A DNA stretch of 64,000 nt, from positions 237,385 through 301,384 of the forward strand of contig JANQRZ010000018.1 in the NCBI GenBank assembly GCA_028284265.1. Reading direction: 5' to 3'. Within the stretch, counting starts at the first letter, position 1; every line of letters begins with the position of its first letter. Below are positions 1 through 52,783 of the stretch, piece by piece. This stretch comes from Rhodothermales bacterium (GTDB lineage: Bacteria; Bacteroidota; Rhodothermia; Rhodothermales; JANQRZ01). The notes beneath the pieces were generated by a model, which saw only the letters and a list, made by a program, of their open reading frames with translations, did not search any database and was not told the DNA's origin. Made by a program: the position numbers and the translations under genes.

Positions 1-1882
1 GGTTGTGGCGCGAGAGGTGGATCGGGGTCTGCCAGTTGAACCGGAGCGGACGCTCACCGAGGTCGTGGCGCGGTGTGATGCGGGTGCGCTCGTAATCGGC
101 TCCCGGCGCGGCCCGGTCGAGGCGGAAGTAGTTGCCGAACTGGAAGCCGGTGTAGACGGTGTTGTTGGTCCGAGTGTCGACCGCGATCTGCATCCCATCG
201 CCACCCATGATCCAATCGAAGTCATAGTCGCCCGAGGCACGCCAGCCGGGGCCGGGCATGTGGGTGTGCGGCCCGGCCCAGACGCCGTTGTCCTGCAAGC
301 CGCCGTAGACATGGTACGGCTCCTGCCCATCCACGGCAACCGTGTAAAACTGTCCTACCGGCGGCACATTCGCCTTGAACCAGCTCTCACCGTCGTCATA
401 GGAAATGTTGATCCCACCGTCATTGCCGTTGATGAGGTGGTCGGGGTTGTTCGGATTGACGAAGAGGGCATGATGATCGACGTGGACATGCTCCTGCCCG
501 ATGCTCTCCCACGTCGCACCACTGTCGGAGGACGCGATAATCGGGACGCCGAGGAGGTAGAGCCGGTCGGGATCGTCTGGGGCGACGCGGACTTCGCCGA
601 AGTAGTAGCCGTAGGAGAACACGAAGTCGTCTATGTAGCCCTCGTGTGTGCGCTGCCACGTCTGCCCTCCGTCGTCCGAGCGATACAACTCACCGCCGAT
701 GACCGGCGTGTCGAAGAGTTGGCGGTTGGCATCTTCGAGGTACTCGACGAGCGCGATGGGTTCGAGGTCGCCCTCGCGTACCATCTCCAGCAGCGATGCG
801 GCGGTGTAGGAGAGCGGAAACCCGTTGCGGTCGAGGTACTCGTTGAGATCATCCTCGGCGAGGGCGAGAAAGGCATCGCGGCTCATCGTGCGGAGCACGT
901 CTTTCGTCAGCGCCGGTTCGTTCTCGTCTGGCTCCTCGGGCCGCCGGTTCTGATTGTCGAGTGAGGCGAAAATCGTCTGCGGGTTGCCGGGATAGACGGC
1001 CAGCCCGATCCGCCCAACTCCGCCCCCCGCCGGGAAGCCACTGCCTTCGACCGTCAGCAGGCTCCACGAGCTGCCGCCGTCCGTGCTCTTGTAGATGCCG
1101 GAGCCGGGACCGGCTTCGGTGAAGTCCCACGCCCGCCGCGTCCGCTCCCACGCCGCCGCGTAGAGCACATCGGCGTTCGTTGGATCAATGGCGAGGTCGA
1201 TGACGCCCGTGTTATCATTGATGAAAAGCGACGGCCTCCACGTCTGCCCGCCGTCGGTTGTTTTGTAGACGCCCCGGTCGGGGCCGGGCGAATAGAGGTG
1301 CCCGATGCTGGCGATCCACGCCACGTCGGGATCGTCAGGATGCAGGATGATGCGACCCGTGTGGTGGGTCTCGTCGAGGCCAAGGTGCATCCACGTCTGC
1401 CCGCCATCGGTGCTCTTGTAGACGCCGGTGCCCGCGTAGGATGAGCGGCTAGAGTTGTTCTCGCCCGTCCCCGCCCAGATCGTCACGCCATCGCCCTCCG
1501 GGTCCCGCCAGTCCACCGCGATGTCGCCGAGGGTCATCGCCGCCTGATCGTCGAAGAGCGGCTCAAAGGTCGAGCCGCCGCTCGTCGTCCGCCACAGCCC
1601 GCCCGAGGCGTAGGCCACGTAGAACGTCGCAGGATCGGTCGGCGATACGTCCACATCCACGACGCGCCCGCTCATTACGGTCGGACCGACATTGCGGAAT
1701 GGGACGTTCGTGAGCAGCGAGCGCTCGGCGAGGGCCTGCCTTGACTCGAACCCGGCGAGGCGTTCAGCGGCGGGCGTCGGGGCAACGGGGTTAGGGGCGA
1801 CTTCGGCCTGGTCTGCCACCGGCTGGGCAGCGAGGGGAAGCGCAAGGGCGAAGATGAGTAGGAGCGTGGGTAGACAGCGCAT
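1..1882 (-). CDS. Secreted BNR/Asp-box repeat protein (sortilin/VPS10-like 'BNR repeat glycosyl hydrolase' family); 3' end cut by the window edge
   Basis: Own translation of the minus strand from the ATG at 1882 gives MRCLPTLLLIFALALPLAAQ (signal peptide). Repeated Asp-box motifs follow: YKSTDGGQTW, YKTTDGGQTW, YKSTDGGSSW, YRSDDGGQTW. The frame stays open to base 1, so there is no stop in the window and the gene is absent from the ORF track. Confidence 0.8.
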   Translation of the reverse strand, partial: MRCLPTLLLIFALALPLAAQPVADQAEVAPNPVAPTPAAERLAGFESRQALAERSLLTNVPFRNVGPTVMSGRVVDVDVSPTDPATFYVAYASGGLWRTTSGGSTFEPLFDDQAAMTLGDIAVDWRDPEGDGVTIWAGTGENNSSRSSYAGTGVYKSTDGGQTWMHLGLDETHHTGRIILHPDDPDVAWIASIGHLYSPGPDRGVYKTTDGGQTWRPSLFINDNTGVIDLAIDPTNADVLYAAAWERTRRAWDFTEAGPGSGIYKSTDGGSSWSLLTVEGSGFPAGGGVGRIGLAVYPGNPQTIFASLDNQNRRPEEPDENEPALTKDVLRTMSRDAFLALAEDDLNEYLDRNGFPLSYTAASLLEMVREGDLEPIALVEYLEDANRQLFDTPVIGGELYRSDDGGQTWQRTHEGYIDDFVFSYGYYFGEVRVAPDDPDRLYLLGVPIIASSDSGATWESIGQEHVHVDHHALFVNPNNPDHLINGNDGGINISYDDGESWFKANVPPVGQFYTVAVDGQEPYHVYGGLQDNGVWAGPHTHMPGPGWRASGDYDFDWIMGGDGMQIAVDTRTNNTVYTGFQFGNYFRLDRAAPGADYERTRITPRHDLGERPLRFNWQTPIHLSRHN

Positions 1883-5965: not shown

Positions 5966-6193
5966 ATGACACGTTTCCAGTCGATCCTTATTCTCGTAGT
6001 CGCCACCCTCACGATCCTCGTGCTAGGCCAAGCGTTTTGGGCACTGGTAGTTGGTGCCGGCACAGCCATCGGAGCCAGCTTCGCTGCACTCGTTGGATCG
6101 GTACCGACGTGGGCATGGTGGGTACTCTTCGGCCTTGTGATGTCGCGCTGCTGGGGTGGCGGCTGCCGGGGTCGCAAAGCTTGTAGTGCCTGA
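5966..6193 (+). CDS. Small hydrophobic protein with a Cys-rich tail (hypothetical)
   Basis: 75 aa, two hydrophobic stretches, ends RCWGGGCRGRKACSA. Only ORF-level evidence. Confidence 0.3.
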   Translation: MTRFQSILILVVATLTILVLGQAFWALVVGAGTAIGASFAALVGSVPTWAWWVLFGLVMSRCWGGGCRGRKACSA

Positions 6194-6194
6194 A

Positions 6195-8216
6195 CTACGC
6201 GGCAGGTGACGCCACGCACCCAGTCGTCTGAGCCAACTCGGCCAGCGCTTCCAAGGTGAGCGATTGTGGACCGTCGGAGAGCGCCGCGTCGGGGTCAGGA
6301 TGGGCTTCCACGATGAGGCCATGTGCTCCAGCAGCGAGAGCCGCCTGTGCGAGCGCCGGAACCCACCGCCGAACGCCCGCGGCGTGGCTCGGATCGACGA
6401 TCACCGGGAGGTGCGTCCGTTCGCGCGCGACGACCACCGACGACAGGTCGAGCGTGTTGCGCGTCGCCGTCTCGAAGGTGCGGATGCCGCGCTCGCAGAG
6501 GATCACCCGCTCATTGCCTGCGGCCAGCACGTACTCCGCCGCCGCGAGCCACTCGTCGATGCTCGCCATCATCCCGCGCTTGAGGAGCACCGGCACGCGG
6601 GTAGAGCCGACCGCCTTGAGCAGCTCGAAGTTCTGCATGTTGCGCGCGCCGATCTGGAGCACATCGGCCTCGCGGGCGACGGCCTCTACATCTGCCGGGT
6701 GCAGCACCTCGGTCACGACAGGCAGATCGTAGGCCCGGCCCGCCTCGTGGAGAAGACGCAGGCCCTCGAAACCGAGGCCTTGGAAGTCGTAGGGTAGCGT
6801 GCGTGGCTTGAAACAGCCACCTCGGAGCAGCCGCCCCCCAGCAGCCCGCACGCCGCGCGCGCTCTCGAAAATCTGCTCCCGGCTCTCGACCGAGCACGGC
6901 CCCGCGATCAGCACCGGCGGCGCATCGCCTCCGATCCGCACGCCGCCGATCTCGACTATGGTATCCTCCGACCGGCCCTCGCGACTGACCAACCGGTAGC
7001 GCTTGCCCGTCGGAGCAACCACTGGGGCGCTTGGAGCAAGGCGCGGCTTCACGGTCGGCGTAGACACCGTTGCTATGCCATCGCCGGAGGCTCCCTCCGC
7101 CGTCGCTGCTCCAGCCTGTGGGTACGACCCGAGCACACGCACCGCCGCGACGTGCTCGGCGAGTTCGGCGAGCGCGGCTTCGACCTGCTCCTCGTGTGTG
7201 CCGCCTTCGATGTCAGCGTAGAAGCGGTACCGCCACGGACCATCGGGACTCGGACGAGACTCTAGCTTGGTCAGGTTCAGTCCGCGACGCGCCAGCACCT
7301 GAAGGGCCTCAGCGAGTGCGCCGTGGCGATGGTCGGTCGTGAGCAAGAGCGAGGTCTTGTGCGGCAACCGTGCATCGTGAGCGACCCCGTCACGCGCCAC
7401 AACGACGAACCGGGTGAAGTTATCCTTTCGGTTGGCGATGTGCCGCTGGATCACGACCAGCCCGTAGCGCTCGCCCGCATCCTCGCCCGCGATGGCCGCC
7501 CGCGTCGGGTCGTTGCTCTCCGCGACGAGGCGCGCCGCCCCTGCCGTGTCGTGCTCGTCTTCGATTCGCACGTCGGTCAACCCGGCGAGGAACTGGCTGC
7601 ACTGAGCAAGCGCCTTCGCATGCGAGCCGACGTGCCGAATCTGTCCGATTGGCACGTTCTCTACAGCTAGCAGACAGTGCTCGACCCGGACCACCTCTTC
7701 GCCGACCAGCACCAAACCCCGCTCGGCGATGAGGTCGTACACGTCCTCGATGGGCCCGGCGACGGTATTCTCGATGGGCAGCACGGCTCGGTCCGCCTCG
7801 CCCCGGCGCAGCGCCTCGACGGCGTCCTGAAACGTCCGGTGCCCGGTGAACGCGAGCGCCTGCTGCCCCGCGAGATGCCGACTTGCGGCAGCGTGGCTAT
7901 AGCACCCCTCTTCCCCCTGAAACGCTACCCGGACGGCATCGCGCGGTGCCTGACGCGAGGCCTGCACCCGAATGGAGTGGTCAAGGATGCGACGATAGAC
8001 CGTCGTAGCGAAGTAGCCGTCGAGACCAGCCTCCTCAGCGAGATCGTGGATGCGACCGAGCAGGGCACGCTCGCGGCCCGGATCGTGGAGCGGGAGGGCC
8101 GGGTCGTCGAGCTTGACGGCGGCGACCTCACCGATGAGCCGCTGACGCTCGGCGAGCAGGGCGATGAGGTCGCGGTCGGTCTGGTCGAGACGGTCGCGGA
8201 GGTTGGAGAGCGGCAT
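6195..8216 (-). CDS. pheA: Trifunctional fusion: chorismate mutase (AroQ) + prephenate dehydratase with ACT domain + 3-deoxy-7-phosphoheptulonate (DAHP) synthase type I-beta
   Basis: The N-terminus ([30 protein letters not shown]) is the CM domain. The middle ([15 protein letters not shown]...[11 protein letters not shown]...[10 protein letters not shown]) is PDT, and [34 protein letters not shown] is ACT. The C-terminus ([13 protein letters not shown]...[17 protein letters not shown]...[12 protein letters not shown]...DPSH) is the DAHPS I-beta core. Confidence 0.85.
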
Positions 8217-8236
8217 CGTGGATGGCTATTGGGTAC

Positions 8237-8264
8237 AAAAAAAGCCCGCCGGGAGAGGCGGGCT
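8237..8264 (-). terminator. Intrinsic terminator acting as attenuator stem 3:4, about 20 nt upstream of the pheA-fusion start codon
   Basis: Minus strand reads AGCCCGCC-UCUCCC-GGCGGGCU followed by UUUUUU (perfect 8-bp GC-rich stem plus U tract). It lies inside a 5' leader rather than after a gene. Confidence 0.65.
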
Positions 8265-8289
8265 GCGAAAGAGGGCGTGGGACGCTCGG

Positions 8290-8388
8290 CTAGTCCCCTA
8301 TCCTCCGGCCCGCCGTGGGCTGGCTAAACGCAAAGCCGTAAAAGTAAAAGCTGGCGCGGAGGTCGATATGGGGAACGCGGTGCGTCAC
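8290..8388 (-). CDS. Candidate Phe/Tyr-rich leader peptide (32 codons, GTG start)
   Basis: Own translation: (M)THRVPHIDLRASFYFYGFAFSQPTAGRRIGD*, with 4 Phe and 2 Tyr in 8 consecutive codons. GGCGGGC within codons 26-28 is complementary to the 5' arm of the terminator. There is no ATG in frame, so the start is uncertain. Confidence 0.5.
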   Translation of the reverse strand: MTHRVPHIDLRASFYFYGFAFSQPTAGRRIGD

Positions 8389-8395
8389 GGGCCAC

Positions 8396-8424
8396 AGAAT
8401 ACGACGGGCGGCGACGGAGTGCAA
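8396..8424 (-). promoter_or_regulatory. Possible sigma70-like promoter for the leader/pheA transcript
   Basis: TTGCAC - 17 nt - TATTCT on the minus strand, directly downstream of ffs. It would place the TSS almost at the GTG, so this call is weak. Confidence 0.3.
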
Positions 8425-8438
8425 CCTTTGGAAACGAA

Positions 8439-8543
8439 ATAAGGGCAAGCGACCCGCATCGCGCCGCTACGACCTCCTACCGCTGCTGCCTTCCGGCCCT
8501 GACGGAGTTCAGAGGGAGCTGGCCGTACGGGACTTGCCCTTAT
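8439..8543 (-). ncRNA. ffs: Signal recognition particle RNA (small/4.5S type)
   Basis: Minus strand contains CCGUCAGGGCCGGAAGGCAGCAGCGGUAGGAG, matching the conserved domain IV core GUCAGGUCCGGAAGGAAGCAGC. The terminal helix UAAGGGCAAG / CUUGCCCUUA closes a roughly 105-nt hairpin. Confidence 0.85.
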
Positions 8544-8641
8544 TCCGCCGACAGGCCCCAATCCGGGCGGTCGGCCAAAAACCAGTGATTGCAATATACG
8601 GCGCGTTCACGCGGAGGGTTCGCGTCACGCGATTTTCAACC

Positions 8642-11086
8642 TCACAGCAAACCTACCGGGTCCACGTCTACGTTGATCCGCACGCCGTTCGGCGGCTTTC
8701 CGAATTGATCGTTGGTGGCGCGGACGAGGCGGGAGAGCGCGTACGGCTGTCCCGGCTCAGTGGACTTGACGATGGTGTGGAAGCGAAACTGCTTTTTGAC
8801 CCGTCCGATGAACGCGGGGTTCGGGCCAAGCACCTCGACCGCTCCACCCTGCTGCCGTAGCAGCCGCGTCCACCGCTCGGCGGTCTGCTGCACGGTGCGT
8901 TCGCTCGGCCCTTTGAACTCGACGCCAACGAGCTTGCCGTAGGGCGGATAGCCAAACGCCCGCCGGTCGGGTAGCTCCGTGCGGATGAATCCGGCGAAGT
9001 CGTGCCGTGCGGCGTGCTGGAGCGCGGGGTTGTCCGGGCTTCGGGTCTGGAGGATGACCTCGCCGCGCAGCGCCCCACGCCCGGCCCGACCGGCAACCTG
9101 CATCAGAAGCTGGAACGTCCGCTCCGCTGCCCGGAAATCCGGCAGCAGCAACCCCGTGTCGGCATCGACCACGCCGACGAGGGTGACGCGGGCGAAGTCG
9201 AGGCCCTTCGCCACCATTTGCGTCCCGATCAGAATGTCAGCCTCGCTTCGCCCGAATGCATCGAGGATTTTTTGATGCGCGTTCTTCCGGCCCGTCGTGT
9301 CGAGGTCCATCCGCAGGACGCGGGCGTCTGGGAAGACCTCGGCCAGTTCTTCCTCGACGCGCTGCGTCCCCGCGCCGAGACGAGCTAGGTCGGACGATCC
9401 ACACTGTGGACAGCGCGTGGGTAACGGCTCGACGAGGCCACAGTAGTGGCAGCGTAGATGGCGGTGGCTCTTGTGGTAGGTGAGCGTCACGGCACAGTCG
9501 CGGCACTCGGGCGTCCACCCACAGTCGTCGCAGGTGACGATGGGCGAGTAACCGCGCCGGTTCTGGAGGAGGATGATTCCCTCGCCTTTTTCGAGCCGGT
9601 CGCGGATCGCCTCGCGAAGCGGATGCGAGAGTGCCCCTTTGAGCCGCCGGACCTTCTTCTCCCACGTCAGGTCTACGATCTCGACCGGCGGTAGCTCCGC
9701 TGCCTTTCGGCCCGGCACGGGGACACGATCGGGCATGGTGAGTAGCTCGTACTTCCCAGCCTTCGCGTTAAGGGTGCTCTCCAAACTCGGCGTGGCGCTG
9801 CCGAGGACACAGACGGCTCGTTCGAGGTGGGCACGCATCACGGCCACGTCGCGTGCATGGTAGCGCGGGGCCGGATCGAACTGCTTGTAGCTCCCCTCGT
9901 GCTCCTCGTCCACCACGATCAGCCCGACATTTCGTAGCGGCGCGAAGATCGCCGAGCGTGGGCCGATGGCGACGTCGAACCGCCCGTTGTTCAGGTGCCG
10001 CCACGCATCGTAGCGCTCGCCCGCGCTCATGCGGCTGTGGAGCACGGCCACGCGGTCGCCGAAGTGGGCACGGAAGCGGCGGACGGTCTGTGGGGTCAGC
10101 GCAATCTCGGGGACGAGCACGATCCCGGTGCGCCCGGCCTCCAAAGTGTGCCGAAGGGCACGGATGTAGACCTCCGTCTTGCCGCTGCCCGTAACGCCGT
10201 GGAGCAGAAAGGTCTTTGTCTCGCCCGCGCCGAGCGCCGCGCCGATTTGGAAGAGCGCCTCGACCTGTCCAGCGTTGAGTTCGTGGACGGGGGGCGGTTC
10301 CGGTTCTGGCTCCGTGTCGAACGGCGTACGAACGATCTCTTTTTCGATGCGCTCGACGAACCCTTTCTCGACGAGACTTTTCACCGTCGTGCTCGACGCC
10401 CCCGTCTCGGCGAGCACGTCGGCCTGCCGAGACTCAACCTCGCCGTCAGCCTGTAATCGGGCGAGTGTTTCGATGATGGCCGTCTGCTTCGCCCCGCGCA
10501 GCGAGTCCGCTGCCTCCGGCCCGACGCCGTCCGCGAGACTGAGATGCCACTCGGTCTTGACGGTAACGCTTGCAGAAGTTAGCTCCTTCTCGACCCGAAT
10601 CAACTCATCCCGTTCGAGCCGCCGGAGCAGGCTCGCCGTGACCCCATCGATGCTTTGCTGTACGGTGCCGATGGGTTGGGGGCCGTCCGCTTCCAACAGC
10701 GCCAGCACCTGACCGCCGACGCCGTTCAGTCCAAGCGACGGGCGCTCGGTCCGGTGGACAACGCGATGGCTCTCGACGGTCGTGCCGGACGGCAGCGCAG
10801 CCTTGAGCACGTCGCCCCACGCGCAGACGTAGTAGTCGGCGATCCACTGCGTCAGCCGGAGCAGCACCGGCGAGAACGACGGTACGTCGTCCAGCACATC
10901 GAGGATCGGCTTGAGCCGCGGTCCCGCCTCGTCCGTTCGCTCGACCACGACACCCGTCAGTGTGCGCGCTCCGAACGGGATCACAACGCGCGCACCGGGC
11001 AGCGCCTCGGCCTCCAACTCTGCCGGGACGAGGTACGTGTAGACCTTGTCGACGGGCGTAAGCGGAACGACGCGGGCGGTGGGCAT
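8642..11086 (-). CDS. priA: Primosomal protein N' (replication restart helicase PriA)
   Basis: Walker A LLHGVTGSGKTEVY, DEEH box, Cys-rich zinc fingers (CDDCGWTPECRDCAV...CHYCG...CPQCGS). Start moved to MPTARVVPL at 11086 to avoid overlap with rtcA. Confidence 0.9.
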   Translation of the reverse strand: MPTARVVPLTPVDKVYTYLVPAELEAEALPGARVVIPFGARTLTGVVVERTDEAGPRLKPILDVLDDVPSFSPVLLRLTQWIADYYVCAWGDVLKAALPSGTTVESHRVVHRTERPSLGLNGVGGQVLALLEADGPQPIGTVQQSIDGVTASLLRRLERDELIRVEKELTSASVTVKTEWHLSLADGVGPEAADSLRGAKQTAIIETLARLQADGEVESRQADVLAETGASSTTVKSLVEKGFVERIEKEIVRTPFDTEPEPEPPPVHELNAGQVEALFQIGAALGAGETKTFLLHGVTGSGKTEVYIRALRHTLEAGRTGIVLVPEIALTPQTVRRFRAHFGDRVAVLHSRMSAGERYDAWRHLNNGRFDVAIGPRSAIFAPLRNVGLIVVDEEHEGSYKQFDPAPRYHARDVAVMRAHLERAVCVLGSATPSLESTLNAKAGKYELLTMPDRVPVPGRKAAELPPVEIVDLTWEKKVRRLKGALSHPLREAIRDRLEKGEGIILLQNRRGYSPIVTCDDCGWTPECRDCAVTLTYHKSHRHLRCHYCGLVEPLPTRCPQCGSSDLARLGAGTQRVEEELAEVFPDARVLRMDLDTTGRKNAHQKILDAFGRSEADILIGTQMVAKGLDFARVTLVGVVDADTGLLLPDFRAAERTFQLLMQVAGRAGRGALRGEVILQTRSPDNPALQHAARHDFAGFIRTELPDRRAFGYPPYGKLVGVEFKGPSERTVQQTAERWTRLLRQQGGAVEVLGPNPAFIGRVKKQFRFHTIVKSTEPGQPYALSRLVRATNDQFGKPPNGVRINVDVDPVGLL

Positions 11087-47710: not shown

Positions 47711-48967
47711 ATGCCAACGTATGACGTGCTCATCGTCGGCGCAGGACTGGCCGGGTTGAACTGCGCCCGCGAACTGCACCGGCACGGCGTCTCGTGCAAA
47801 GTGATCGAAGCCTCCGACGGCGTCGGCGGGCGCGTCCGCACCGACGAGGTGGACGGCTTCCTCCTCGACCGAGGCTTTCAGGTTCTGCTAACGGCCTACC
47901 CCGAGGCGCAGCGCGTGCTCGACTATGACGCGCTCGACCTCCGCTCGTTCTACGATGGCGCACTCGTCCGCTTCGACGGGGCCTTCCACCGCGTCGCCGA
48001 TCCGCTCCGCGAGCCGCTTGCTGCGCCCTCGACCGTCTTCTCCCCCGTCGGCACGCTCGGCGACAAGCTCCGCACGCTCAAGCTCCGGCAAGCCGTCCGC
48101 TCGCCCGACCTCGCCGCGCTGTGGGCACGCGACGAGATCACGACGCGCCAGGCCCTGACCGAGCGCTACGGGTTCTCCGACACGATGGTCCGCCGCTTCT
48201 TCGAGCCGTTCCTCGGCGGCATCCTGCTGGACCCCGACCTCGGCGCATCGAGCCGGGCGTTCGAGTTCTACTTCCGCATGTTCACTGAGGGCGACACCGC
48301 CGTGCCCGCACGCGGGATGCAGCAAATCCCCGAGCAACTGGCGGCGGGGCTGGAGGATCACACGATCCAGCTCAACACCCGCGTGCAGCGCGTCGCCCCC
48401 GGCACGGTGACGCTTGAAACAGGTGCGGAGGTCGAAGCCTCGGCGGTCGTCGTCGCCACCGACGGGCCTGAGTTGGCGTACCTCCTTGACGGGTTCGACC
48501 CGCCCGCCTCGCGCTCGGTCCTGTGCCTCTACTACGCGGCGGACGAAGCGCCGACGGACGACCCAGTCCTAGTGCTTGATGGCGAAGGCGGCGGGCTGGT
48601 CAACAACCTCGTGGTGATGAGCAACGTCTCGCCGCACTACGCGCCACCGGGCAAGGCACTTGTCTCCGTCTCCGTCATCGGCAACCCAACACAGTCGGAC
48701 GCCGAGGTCGAGACCAGCGTGCGCGCCCATCTCCGGCGGTGGTACCCTGCCGCCGGGGCGTGGCAGCACCTCAAGACCTACCGGATTCTGCACGCGCAGC
48801 CCTCTCAGGCTCCGCCCGCGCTCTCGCCACCGGAGCGGTCGGCTAAACTCAGCGACGGCCTCTACCTCGCGGGCGACCACCGAACGAACGCCTCAATCAA
48901 CGGCGCGCTCGTCTCGGGCCGACGCGCTGCCGAGGCCGTCCTCGCCGACCTCGGCGTGCCGGTGTGA
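47711..48967 (+). CDS. FAD/NAD(P)-dependent oxidoreductase (amine oxidase / phytoene desaturase-like)
   Basis: YDVLIVGAGLAGLNCARELHRHGVSCKVIEASDGVGGR dinucleotide-binding motif. Confidence 0.8.
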   Translation: MPTYDVLIVGAGLAGLNCARELHRHGVSCKVIEASDGVGGRVRTDEVDGFLLDRGFQVLLTAYPEAQRVLDYDALDLRSFYDGALVRFDGAFHRVADPLREPLAAPSTVFSPVGTLGDKLRTLKLRQAVRSPDLAALWARDEITTRQALTERYGFSDTMVRRFFEPFLGGILLDPDLGASSRAFEFYFRMFTEGDTAVPARGMQQIPEQLAAGLEDHTIQLNTRVQRVAPGTVTLETGAEVEASAVVVATDGPELAYLLDGFDPPASRSVLCLYYAADEAPTDDPVLVLDGEGGGLVNNLVVMSNVSPHYAPPGKALVSVSVIGNPTQSDAEVETSVRAHLRRWYPAAGAWQHLKTYRILHAQPSQAPPALSPPERSAKLSDGLYLAGDHRTNASINGALVSGRRAAEAVLADLGVPV

Positions 48968-52466: not shown

Positions 52467-52783
52467 TGTGGGAGACGTTCAAGGAGTGGTTCTTCAGTCT
52501 CGGAGCCGAGTACGGCGTGGACCCGCTAATCTTCGGCGCGATCTACGTCGGGGCGATCCCGTTCTTCACACTCTCGCTGGGGTGGCTGATTCGGAATCTG
52601 CGGCGGAAGAAGTCGGCGGCGCTCCCGGCGTTCTTCACGCTGTTCTTCTTCTGCTCGGCGTACCTGTACCTGCTCGTCGCCGGACAGAACATCCCGTGGT
52701 GGGTCTACGGCCTCGTCGCAGCGATGGTCGTCCTCGGCGCGGTCTCGACGGTGCGGAAGGTGCGGGCGCGACTCGCGGAATAG
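52466..52783 (+). CDS. Small 3-TM membrane protein (hypothetical)
   Basis: Starts MWETFKEWFFSLG. Its ATG overlaps the upstream TGA (TGATG). Hydrophobic. Confidence 0.45.
   Translation: MWETFKEWFFSLGAEYGVDPLIFGAIYVGAIPFFTLSLGWLIRNLRRKKSAALPAFFTLFFFCSAYLYLLVAGQNIPWWVYGLVAAMVVLGAVSTVRKVRARLAE

Follow-up and report, generated by a model that had tools for sequence, protein, structure and literature searches.

The 64-kb window analysed here (a stretch of 64,000 nt from contig JANQRZ010000018.1, to which all coordinates refer unless a locus is named) carries on its minus strand, directly upstream of a gene for a trifunctional aromatic amino acid enzyme, what is very probably a ribosome-mediated leader-peptide transcription attenuator. 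As read from its sequence, this element would adjust the production of a chorismate mutase–prephenate dehydratase–ACT–DAHP synthase fusion to how much charged tRNA-Phe and tRNA-Tyr is available, and in most relatives it would be responsive to tRNA-Trp as well. The gene in question (8216-6195, minus strand) encodes 673 amino acids, in which Pfam models (CM_2, PDT, ACT, DAHP_synth_1) and NCBIfam models (PRK08673, PRK12595, PRK10622) identify four parts of a single polypeptide: chorismate mutase, prephenate dehydratase, ACT domain and DAHP synthase (type I-beta). A sensor of Phe/Tyr(/Trp) fits a product of this kind, which catalyses the first common step (DAHP synthase) together with the Phe branch. 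The protein shares 65-71% identity with its counterparts in Rubrivirga and Rubricoccaceae genomes, which places the source organism in the Rhodothermota, near Rubricoccaceae.

The leader open reading frame (ORF) extends on the minus strand from a GTG at 8388 to a TAG ending at 8290 (8388-8290; 32 sense codons and the stop) and encodes (M/V)THRVPHIDLRASFYFYGFAFSQPTAGRRIGD, the GTG being the sole in-frame start codon after the promoter-like site described below. A preliminary description of the locus had reported four Phe and two Tyr codons in a run of eight within this ORF, and the run is indeed present, as TTT TAC TTT TAC GGC TTT GCG TTT (FYFYGFAF; 8349-8326, minus strand); it is the proposed stall site of the ribosome. 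With a G+C content of 65%, aromatic codons are rare in the window, and among the 110,252 stop-free eight-codon windows in the six frames of the 64 kb, six aromatic codons occur in this one alone and five in nine. The locus thus presents a short ORF, rich in codons for the end products, before a biosynthetic gene. Six of the leader peptides were compared with the Pfam and NCBIfam profiles and none had a match at E≤10. All four Phe codons of the window's leader are TTT, compared with 16% TTT and 84% TTC in the long ORFs of the window. TTT and TAT are preferred in orthologous leaders too, and the preference for TTT may slow decoding or keep the stall region unstructured.

Three other aromatic-rich segments of the window (596-625, 48260-48283 and 52628-52654) were considered as leaders and rejected, having at most five aromatic codons in eight. 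The first of these, FVFSYGYYFG on the minus strand, is an ordinary protein segment and no leader; it belongs to a long ORF that continues beyond the window's left end and has repeated 'S/TxDGGxTW' motifs (BNR/sortilin-like). The leader ORF itself is overlapped by a second frame (8395-8324, minus strand), beginning at a GTG 7 nt upstream of the leader GTG, which encodes MARDAPRSPYRPPRQLLLLRLCV before its stop codon and reads the T-rich stretch as a run of Leu codons. This frame stops ahead of the segment termed region 2 below and is most likely a by-product of the T-rich codons.

Between the leader ORF and the fusion gene lies an intrinsic terminator (pairing 3:4; 8264-8237, minus strand), in which AGCCCGCC (8264-8257), a TCTCCC loop and GGCGGGCT (8250-8243) form an 8-bp hairpin of -16.7 kcal/mol, followed by TTTTTT (8242-8237). 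The distance from the T-run to the gene ATG, previously given as about 20 nt, is exactly 20 nt (8236-8217), and a scan of this gap found no promoter-like site. A scan of the 64 kb found seven strong hairpin-plus-T-run sites. This one alone follows a short ORF that has an amino-acid run; the other terminators, none of which has a leader-like ORF before it, were rejected as attenuators.

The 5' arm of the terminator has an alternative partner in region 2, the core of which, GGCGGGC (8314-8308, minus strand, with extended pairing to 8294), is complementary to the GCCCGCC of the 5' arm and identical to the terminator's 3' arm. This complementarity, and with it the candidate role of GGCGGGC as an antiterminator, was pointed out in the preliminary description and stands, with two corrections: the core occupies the last base of codon 25 and codons 26-27 rather than codons 26-28, and the pairing extends well beyond 7 bp. 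The predicted antiterminator (2:3) is a 58-nt imperfect hairpin (8314-8257, minus strand; -29.9 to -31.0 kcal/mol). Its base, the 7-bp GGCGGGC/GCCCGCC duplex, is stacked on an inner hairpin (8307-8266), CGGAGGA..GGGGAC-loop-GUCCC..UCUUUCG. The stop codon TAG (8292-8290) lies near the apex of the inner hairpin and, in the window as in the Rubricoccaceae orthologs, comes after region 2. The composite pattern GGCGGGC-N30-60-GCCCGCC-N2-8-GGCGGGCTTTT was found once in the window and in none of 100 shuffles. A further segment, region 1 (8349-8374, minus strand; core CCTCCGCGCC / CCUCCGCGCC at 8362-8353), pairs with region 2 and its extension in minimum-free-energy folds without a ribosome, and the lowest-energy ribosome-free fold of the window consists of 1:2 and the terminator.

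To follow these elements through related genomes, upstream regions were taken from genome and metagenome collections for 18 Rubricoccaceae (one frameshifted), one member of the Rhodothermaceae (L040), two of the Salinibacteraceae (L041, L042), one Gemmatimonadota metagenome-assembled genome (MAG; L036) and one unclassified MAG (L026). A metagenome scan supplied three added leaders (L079, L080 and L082), in which regions 2-4 showed no new variation. Absence of conservation in orthologous leaders had been named beforehand as an observation that would count decisively against an attenuator, and the aromatic run and the hairpins were found to be kept in 22 of 22. The whole layout of promoter, ATG, aromatic run, region 2, stop codon, terminator and fusion gene recurs in these 22 leaders, whose ORFs are 21-49 codons long. 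At least four aromatic residues in eight codons are present in 19 of the 22 and three in the remaining three, the six-frame background in the orthologous loci being 0.076% for at least four and 0.55% for at least three. A segment complementary to the terminator 5' arm lies 3-34 nt before the stop codon in all 22 (3-23 nt in all but L016). A hairpin with a T-run precedes the fusion gene in all 21 sequences analysed first and in the three added, the terminator hairpin of the orthologs beginning 49-131 nt upstream of the gene.

The peptides encoded by the orthologous leaders include MIAARPDSAAFPFYGYWFRRPAGRRRSG, MTSRSTQIAPALPATGAATLRYAFYFYFYRFGSGTGGADATSS, ...GDLYAFAFFYLGYAYFYFYLLTAGGT, MMRKVSSFRFYFFADSKPSGG and MMRNAVHRFCWVFQFSFFASRGSPAMV. 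Between families they are unalignable outside the aromatic run (FPFYGYWF, YAFYFYFYRF, YAYFYFYL, FRFYFF, WVFQFSFF), and Phe, Tyr and Trp interchange at single positions within it, which indicates that selection acts on the codon class and not on the protein. A G-Y-W-F motif is found in 11 of the 17 intact Rubricoccaceae orthologs, while the run in the window has Phe and Tyr only; as Phe, Tyr and Trp are all present in leaders with this motif, those leaders would sense all three aromatic amino acids.

At the nucleotide level, the leaders of the Rhodothermaceae, the Salinibacteraceae, the Gemmatimonadota MAG and the unclassified MAG are unrelated in sequence and identical in architecture. Region 2 and the terminator arm read GCACCGGCGG / CCCGTCGGTGC in L040, CCGGCGG / CCGCCGG in L041, GGCTGGCGG / CCGCCGGCC in L042, CCGAGTGGG / CCCGCTTGG in L036 and GGAGCC.GGCG / CGCCGGCTCC in L026, and the number of shuffles (of 200 each) that equalled the observed pairing was 0, 0, 3, 2 and 0, respectively; it was 0 for L016 and 8 for the window. 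Within the Rubricoccaceae the region 2 core is invariant in 17 of 18 leaders, the remaining one (L010) having GGTGGGC, with which G-U pairing is retained. All 18 of these sequences form an equivalent 2:3 hairpin of -27.7 to -36.3 kcal/mol, and its inner segment folds more stably than shuffles (mean z -1.7; below -1 in 16 of 18) through stems that differ in sequence (GGGAC/GUCCC, GGGAU/AUCCC, GAUGGU/AUCAUC, AGGAG/CUCCU, GGGAG/CUCCC).

The very strong conservation of the inner hairpin and regions 2-4 in the Rubricoccaceae resembles that of a ligand- or protein-binding RNA, and a conserved motif further upstream in relatives (see below) hints at extra regulation, so that a trans-acting factor, either an RNA-binding protein or a metabolite, could be imagined to set the switch with the ORF being incidental. 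We consider this highly improbable, as no Rfam riboswitch, T-box or protein-binding leader was detected at E≤1 in the window or at the gathering score at the 18 orthologous loci, and lineages with unrelated RNA keep the -10-adjacent ATG, the aromatic run and the position of the stop codon, none of which an untranslated element needs. The cmscan search of 7900-9000 with Rfam at E≤1 returned only a signal recognition particle (SRP) RNA and a sub-threshold chance match to a terminator, and no Rfam leader family reached its gathering score at the 18 orthologous loci. The covariance models of the two leaders closest in subject, Phe_leader (RF01859) and Bacteroid-trp (RF01692), had no match in the window or at the 18 loci.

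The fusion is also found at 46-56% identity in MAGs (loci L011-L054) labelled Planctomycetota, Ignavibacteria/Melioribacter, Gemmatimonadota, Myxococcota and Vicinamibacteria. A simple screen found no aromatic leader at the fusion orthologs labelled Planctomycetota, Myxococcota, Vicinamibacteria or Ignavibacteria/Melioribacter; outside the Rhodothermota, and among the orthologs screened, the aromatic leader is present only in the one Gemmatimonadota MAG and the one unclassified MAG. At the frameshifted Rubricoccaceae locus (L039, 2832-2990), both the leader ORF and the N-terminus of the fusion look shifted in frame (for example GGGTATGGTTTATG vs GGGTATTGGTTTATG in relatives); a fault of the assembly is the likely cause, rather than genuine loss.

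The leader ORF of the window is preceded by a -35-like hexamer TTGCAC (8424-8419, minus strand), a spacer of 17 nt (8418-8402) and a -10-like hexamer TATTCT (8401-8396), with 7 nt separating the latter from the start codon. The hexamers are a direct reading, and together they would act as a promoter. The pattern TTGnnn-N17/18-TAnnnT is present in 22 of 24 leaders (the window and 23 orthologous loci, including the frameshifted one) and the other two have near-matches; the distance from the end of the site to the leader start codon is 5-7 nt, and 9 nt in the two Salinibacteraceae. In the window alone the pattern has one match against 0.32 expected, which is not significant singly, and its weight derives from its conservation among the leaders. 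Under normal sigma-70 geometry the spacing of the -10 element puts the start of transcription on or next to the leader start codon, which is ATG in every ortholog and GTG in the window only. The leader mRNA is therefore probably leaderless, with transcription beginning at or beside GTG 8388, and no ribosome-binding site would be required. This changes the standing of what the preliminary description had taken to be the weakest element, a GTG start without a Shine-Dalgarno sequence, for which the promoter-like site 5-9 nt before the start would account.

In 13 of the Rubricoccaceae orthologs a motif, GAGAAGAAAAGCGCTTCC (palindromic core AAGCGCTT), is found once per locus, 81-84 nt upstream of the leader ATG (L001 2758-2770, L005 2740-2752, L006 2751-2763 and 10 other Rubricoccaceae loci). 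It is absent at the leader of the window, where the SRP RNA gene occupies the corresponding position; elsewhere in the window even the best match is no better than expected by chance. The motif could be a transcription-factor or UP-like site providing a second layer of control.

Having its own promoter-like site and a strong terminator, the unit might be read as a separate gene for a small RNA or small protein, with the fusion gene transcribed from a promoter of its own, perhaps overlapping the T-tract. The consensus of the Bacteroidetes -7 box is TAnnTTTG, and TTTTTTTG loosely resembles it. This promoter motif is mentioned in PMC9723704, and in Sinorhizobium attenuator-derived RNAs and leader peptides are described as acting in trans (PMC7298713, PMC7968998). 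However, no promoter-like site was found in the short interval between terminator and ATG, the T-tract has no -33 element and in none of the sequences does it contain the A that is conserved in TAnnTTTG, and these genomes use TTGnnn/TAnnnT for the leader; the T-tract was thus rejected as a Bacteroidetes-type -7 box. A separate gene also fits poorly with a unit that always adjoins the fusion gene while the upstream neighbours differ, and with a peptide that is not conserved between families outside its aromatic codons, so we give this explanation very little credence. Nor does the terminator appear to end the SRP RNA gene or another upstream gene, a reading that was rejected because the unit accompanies the fusion gene at loci without an SRP gene and because the upstream gene of L005, the only ortholog inspected for this, is divergent. 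The terminated leader RNA of ~150 nt, or its peptide, could additionally act in trans in the manner of Sinorhizobium rnTrpL/peTrpL; nothing points there.

The distance from the last Phe codon to region 2 is 11 nt in the window and 8 nt in most orthologs. Region 1 of the Rubricoccaceae orthologs is GCCCGCC, a copy of region 3 located at codons 4-6; the aromatic run abuts region 1 in the window and occupies the loop between regions 1 and 2 in the Rubricoccaceae orthologs. When the ribosome is assumed to cover -15 to +12 around the A-site codon, a simulated stall within the aromatic run keeps region 2 accessible, and region 3 finds its partner upstream (in the window, for 7 of its 8 nt); in the window the stalled ribosome also masks region 1. 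A ribosome at the stop codon separates region 2 (-22 to -16 relative to the stop) from region 3 (+28). Hence, in the footprint simulations, the antiterminator can form during a stall but not while a ribosome occupies the stop codon, in agreement with the stalling geometry originally proposed. A masking model in which pairs could span the ribosome gave artefacts, with 2:3 closing a loop that held the ribosome, and folding of downstream sequence only was trusted instead.

From these features the following mechanism can be proposed. Transcription from TTGCAC-N17-TATTCT would begin at or beside GTG 8388, and a 70S ribosome would load on the 5'-terminal start codon and trail the polymerase. When aromatic amino acids are plentiful, the ribosome would reach TAG 8292-8290 within the antiterminator and part region 2 from region 3; region 3 would then pair with region 4, and the AGCCCGCC/GGCGGGCU hairpin with its U-tract would end transcription ~20 nt before the gene. 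If Phe or Tyr ran low, the ribosome would stall on FYFYGFAF and mask region 1, leaving region 2 free to pair with region 3 once this has been made, so that nucleation of the terminator would be blocked and the polymerase would enter the gene. If no ribosome were present, the 1:2 pairing and the terminator would be expected to form.

A number of observations weigh against this attenuator. In a comparison of the two structures of the kind suggested in the preliminary description, equilibrium favours the terminator state in 21 of 21 sequences under every simulated condition, although its advantage under stalling drops from a mean of -16.7 to -5.8 kcal/mol. A purely thermodynamic switch was rejected on this basis. 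As the equilibrium energies never flip, the switch must be kinetic, with 2:3 formed before region 4 is transcribed. In the E. coli trp system the terminator hairpin is likewise more stable than the antiterminator and the switch is likewise kinetic. Furthermore, the ribosome-free nascent RNA of several orthologs prefers 2:3 over 1:2, which is unlike the classical four-region scheme. Aromatic runs are weak, with three residues in eight, in L003, L035 and L082, and the run of L016 is weak too. Regions 2-4 are invariant in the Rubricoccaceae except for L010, leaving only the inner hairpin to vary, and covariation analysis with RNAalifold is uninformative; because covariation within this family is not scorable, support has to come instead from the different sequences of the other lineages. 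The GTG start of the window leaves some residual uncertainty as to initiation on a 5'-terminal GUG in Rhodothermota. Finally, we infer the transcription start, the translation of the ORF, termination and the dependence on amino acids all from sequence.

Some of these points would equally suit an ORF that is translated and a terminator that works, with termination being constitutive and partial and serving only to set the level of expression, or with control exerted chiefly on translation or on the stability of the mRNA and not on transcription in response to amino acids: the terminator is always preferred in equilibrium folding, and the GTG of the window may initiate poorly. Constitutive termination would leave unexplained why, in most lineages examined, an aromatic run is conserved at a distance of 8-11 nt ahead of region 2, and the hairpin and U-tract form a canonical intrinsic terminator. 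The probability of this alternative is accordingly judged to be slight, and a ribosome-mediated attenuator continues to be the reading that we prefer.

Among known systems, the closest functional analogues are the leaderless aroF leader of C. glutamicum, described below, and pheL-pheA of E. coli and other gammaproteobacteria (RF01859; PMC3082878). In pheL-pheA, a leader ORF with a run of Phe codons likewise stands before a chorismate mutase-prephenate dehydratase gene; the pairings 1:2, 2:3 and 3:4 are alternatives, and the gene is immediately preceded by an intrinsic terminator. There is no homology of sequence or structure between the two (no Rfam match at E≤1), and the element described here is an analogue of pheL-pheA and not a member of its family. 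It differs in a codon run that mixes Phe and Tyr, with Trp in relatives, in an apparently leaderless mRNA in place of a Shine-Dalgarno site, in a stop codon that lies inside the antiterminator hairpin, downstream of region 2, and in a regulated gene that also has a DAHP synthase domain. The four-region logic and the kinetic decision are shared with the E. coli trp attenuator (trpL), in which, unlike here, the regulatory codons are inside region 1 and the stop codon falls between regions 1 and 2.

Leaderless leaders have been described in Actinobacteria such as Corynebacterium and Streptomyces. According to PMC8079986 and PMC4046766, leader peptides of leu, trp and ilv are leaderless in this group, and PMC4046766 and Neshat et al. 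2014 (via PMC8079986) report a leaderless Phe-Tyr-Phe leader upstream of aroF, a DAHP synthase gene, in C. glutamicum. The aroF leader resembles the present one in its mixed aromatic codons, its DAHP synthase gene and the hairpin and U-stretch after the ORF, and probably in the leaderless transcript. Actinomycetota and Rhodothermota are unrelated phyla and homology is not expected; the present leader has a longer run (6 of 8) and stands before a trifunctional fusion. Closer to the present lineage, leader-peptide attenuation has been suggested in Bacteroidota for the Bacteroid-trp motif (RF01692; PMC2864571) and for candidates in Flavobacterium psychrophilum (PMC9723704). These are also cis-regulatory leaders of amino acid operons in the wider Fibrobacteres-Chlorobi-Bacteroidetes group, which is poor in Shine-Dalgarno sites, and they differ in amino acid (Trp), sequence and phylum, with no Rfam match here.

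As regards the surroundings of the attenuator, the intergenic region read on the minus strand is limited upstream by priA (11194-8642, minus strand). The SRP RNA gene mentioned above (8546-8439, minus strand; Rfam Bacteroidales_small_SRP, RF04183, 98.1 bits, E=5e-21) lies between priA and the leader, with its 3' end 14 nt upstream of the leader -35 hexamer. An SRP gene in this position was seen in the window only, the 18 orthologous loci searched having no Rfam match of any kind, and this neighbourhood is thus specific to the genome of the window. Downstream, a 75-aa hydrophobic ORF (5966-6193, plus strand) converges on the 3' end of the fusion gene, the stops at 6193 and 6195 being 1 nt apart; if this ORF is a real gene, the attenuated transcription unit consists of a single gene.

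Full-text literature searches found nothing on leader-peptide attenuation in Rhodothermota. While the mechanism itself is textbook, the lineage and the form in which it appears here are uncatalogued in Rfam, Pfam and NCBIfam. We are inclined, with moderate confidence, to regard these leaders as an uncatalogued class of attenuator, present in all three families of Rhodothermota sampled, in one Gemmatimonadota MAG and in one unclassified MAG, in which a leader peptide translated from a leaderless mRNA, with a mixed Phe/Tyr/Trp run, would control one trifunctional enzyme. What the present analysis usefully adds is a probably leaderless layout, an extended antiterminator enclosing the stop codon, and a distribution over three families and two MAGs. 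No current idea is overturned by the attenuator. Its addition to Rfam, Pfam and NCBIfam, from which it is missing, would improve the annotation of these genomes, and as a compact sensor of aromatic amino acids it would lend itself to tests in Rhodothermus marinus, Salinibacter ruber or other tractable relatives.

A conserved case of leader-peptide attenuation in Rhodothermota implies that transcription and translation are tightly coupled in these bacteria. It also suggests how attenuation can operate in bacteria poor in Shine-Dalgarno sites, namely by letting the leader ORF open directly at the transcript's 5' end. If this is true, leaderless leader ORFs would allow ribosome-coupled attenuation in lineages without Shine-Dalgarno sites, and one codon run would integrate the three aromatic amino acids over an enzyme that is both the entry point and a branch point of the pathway.

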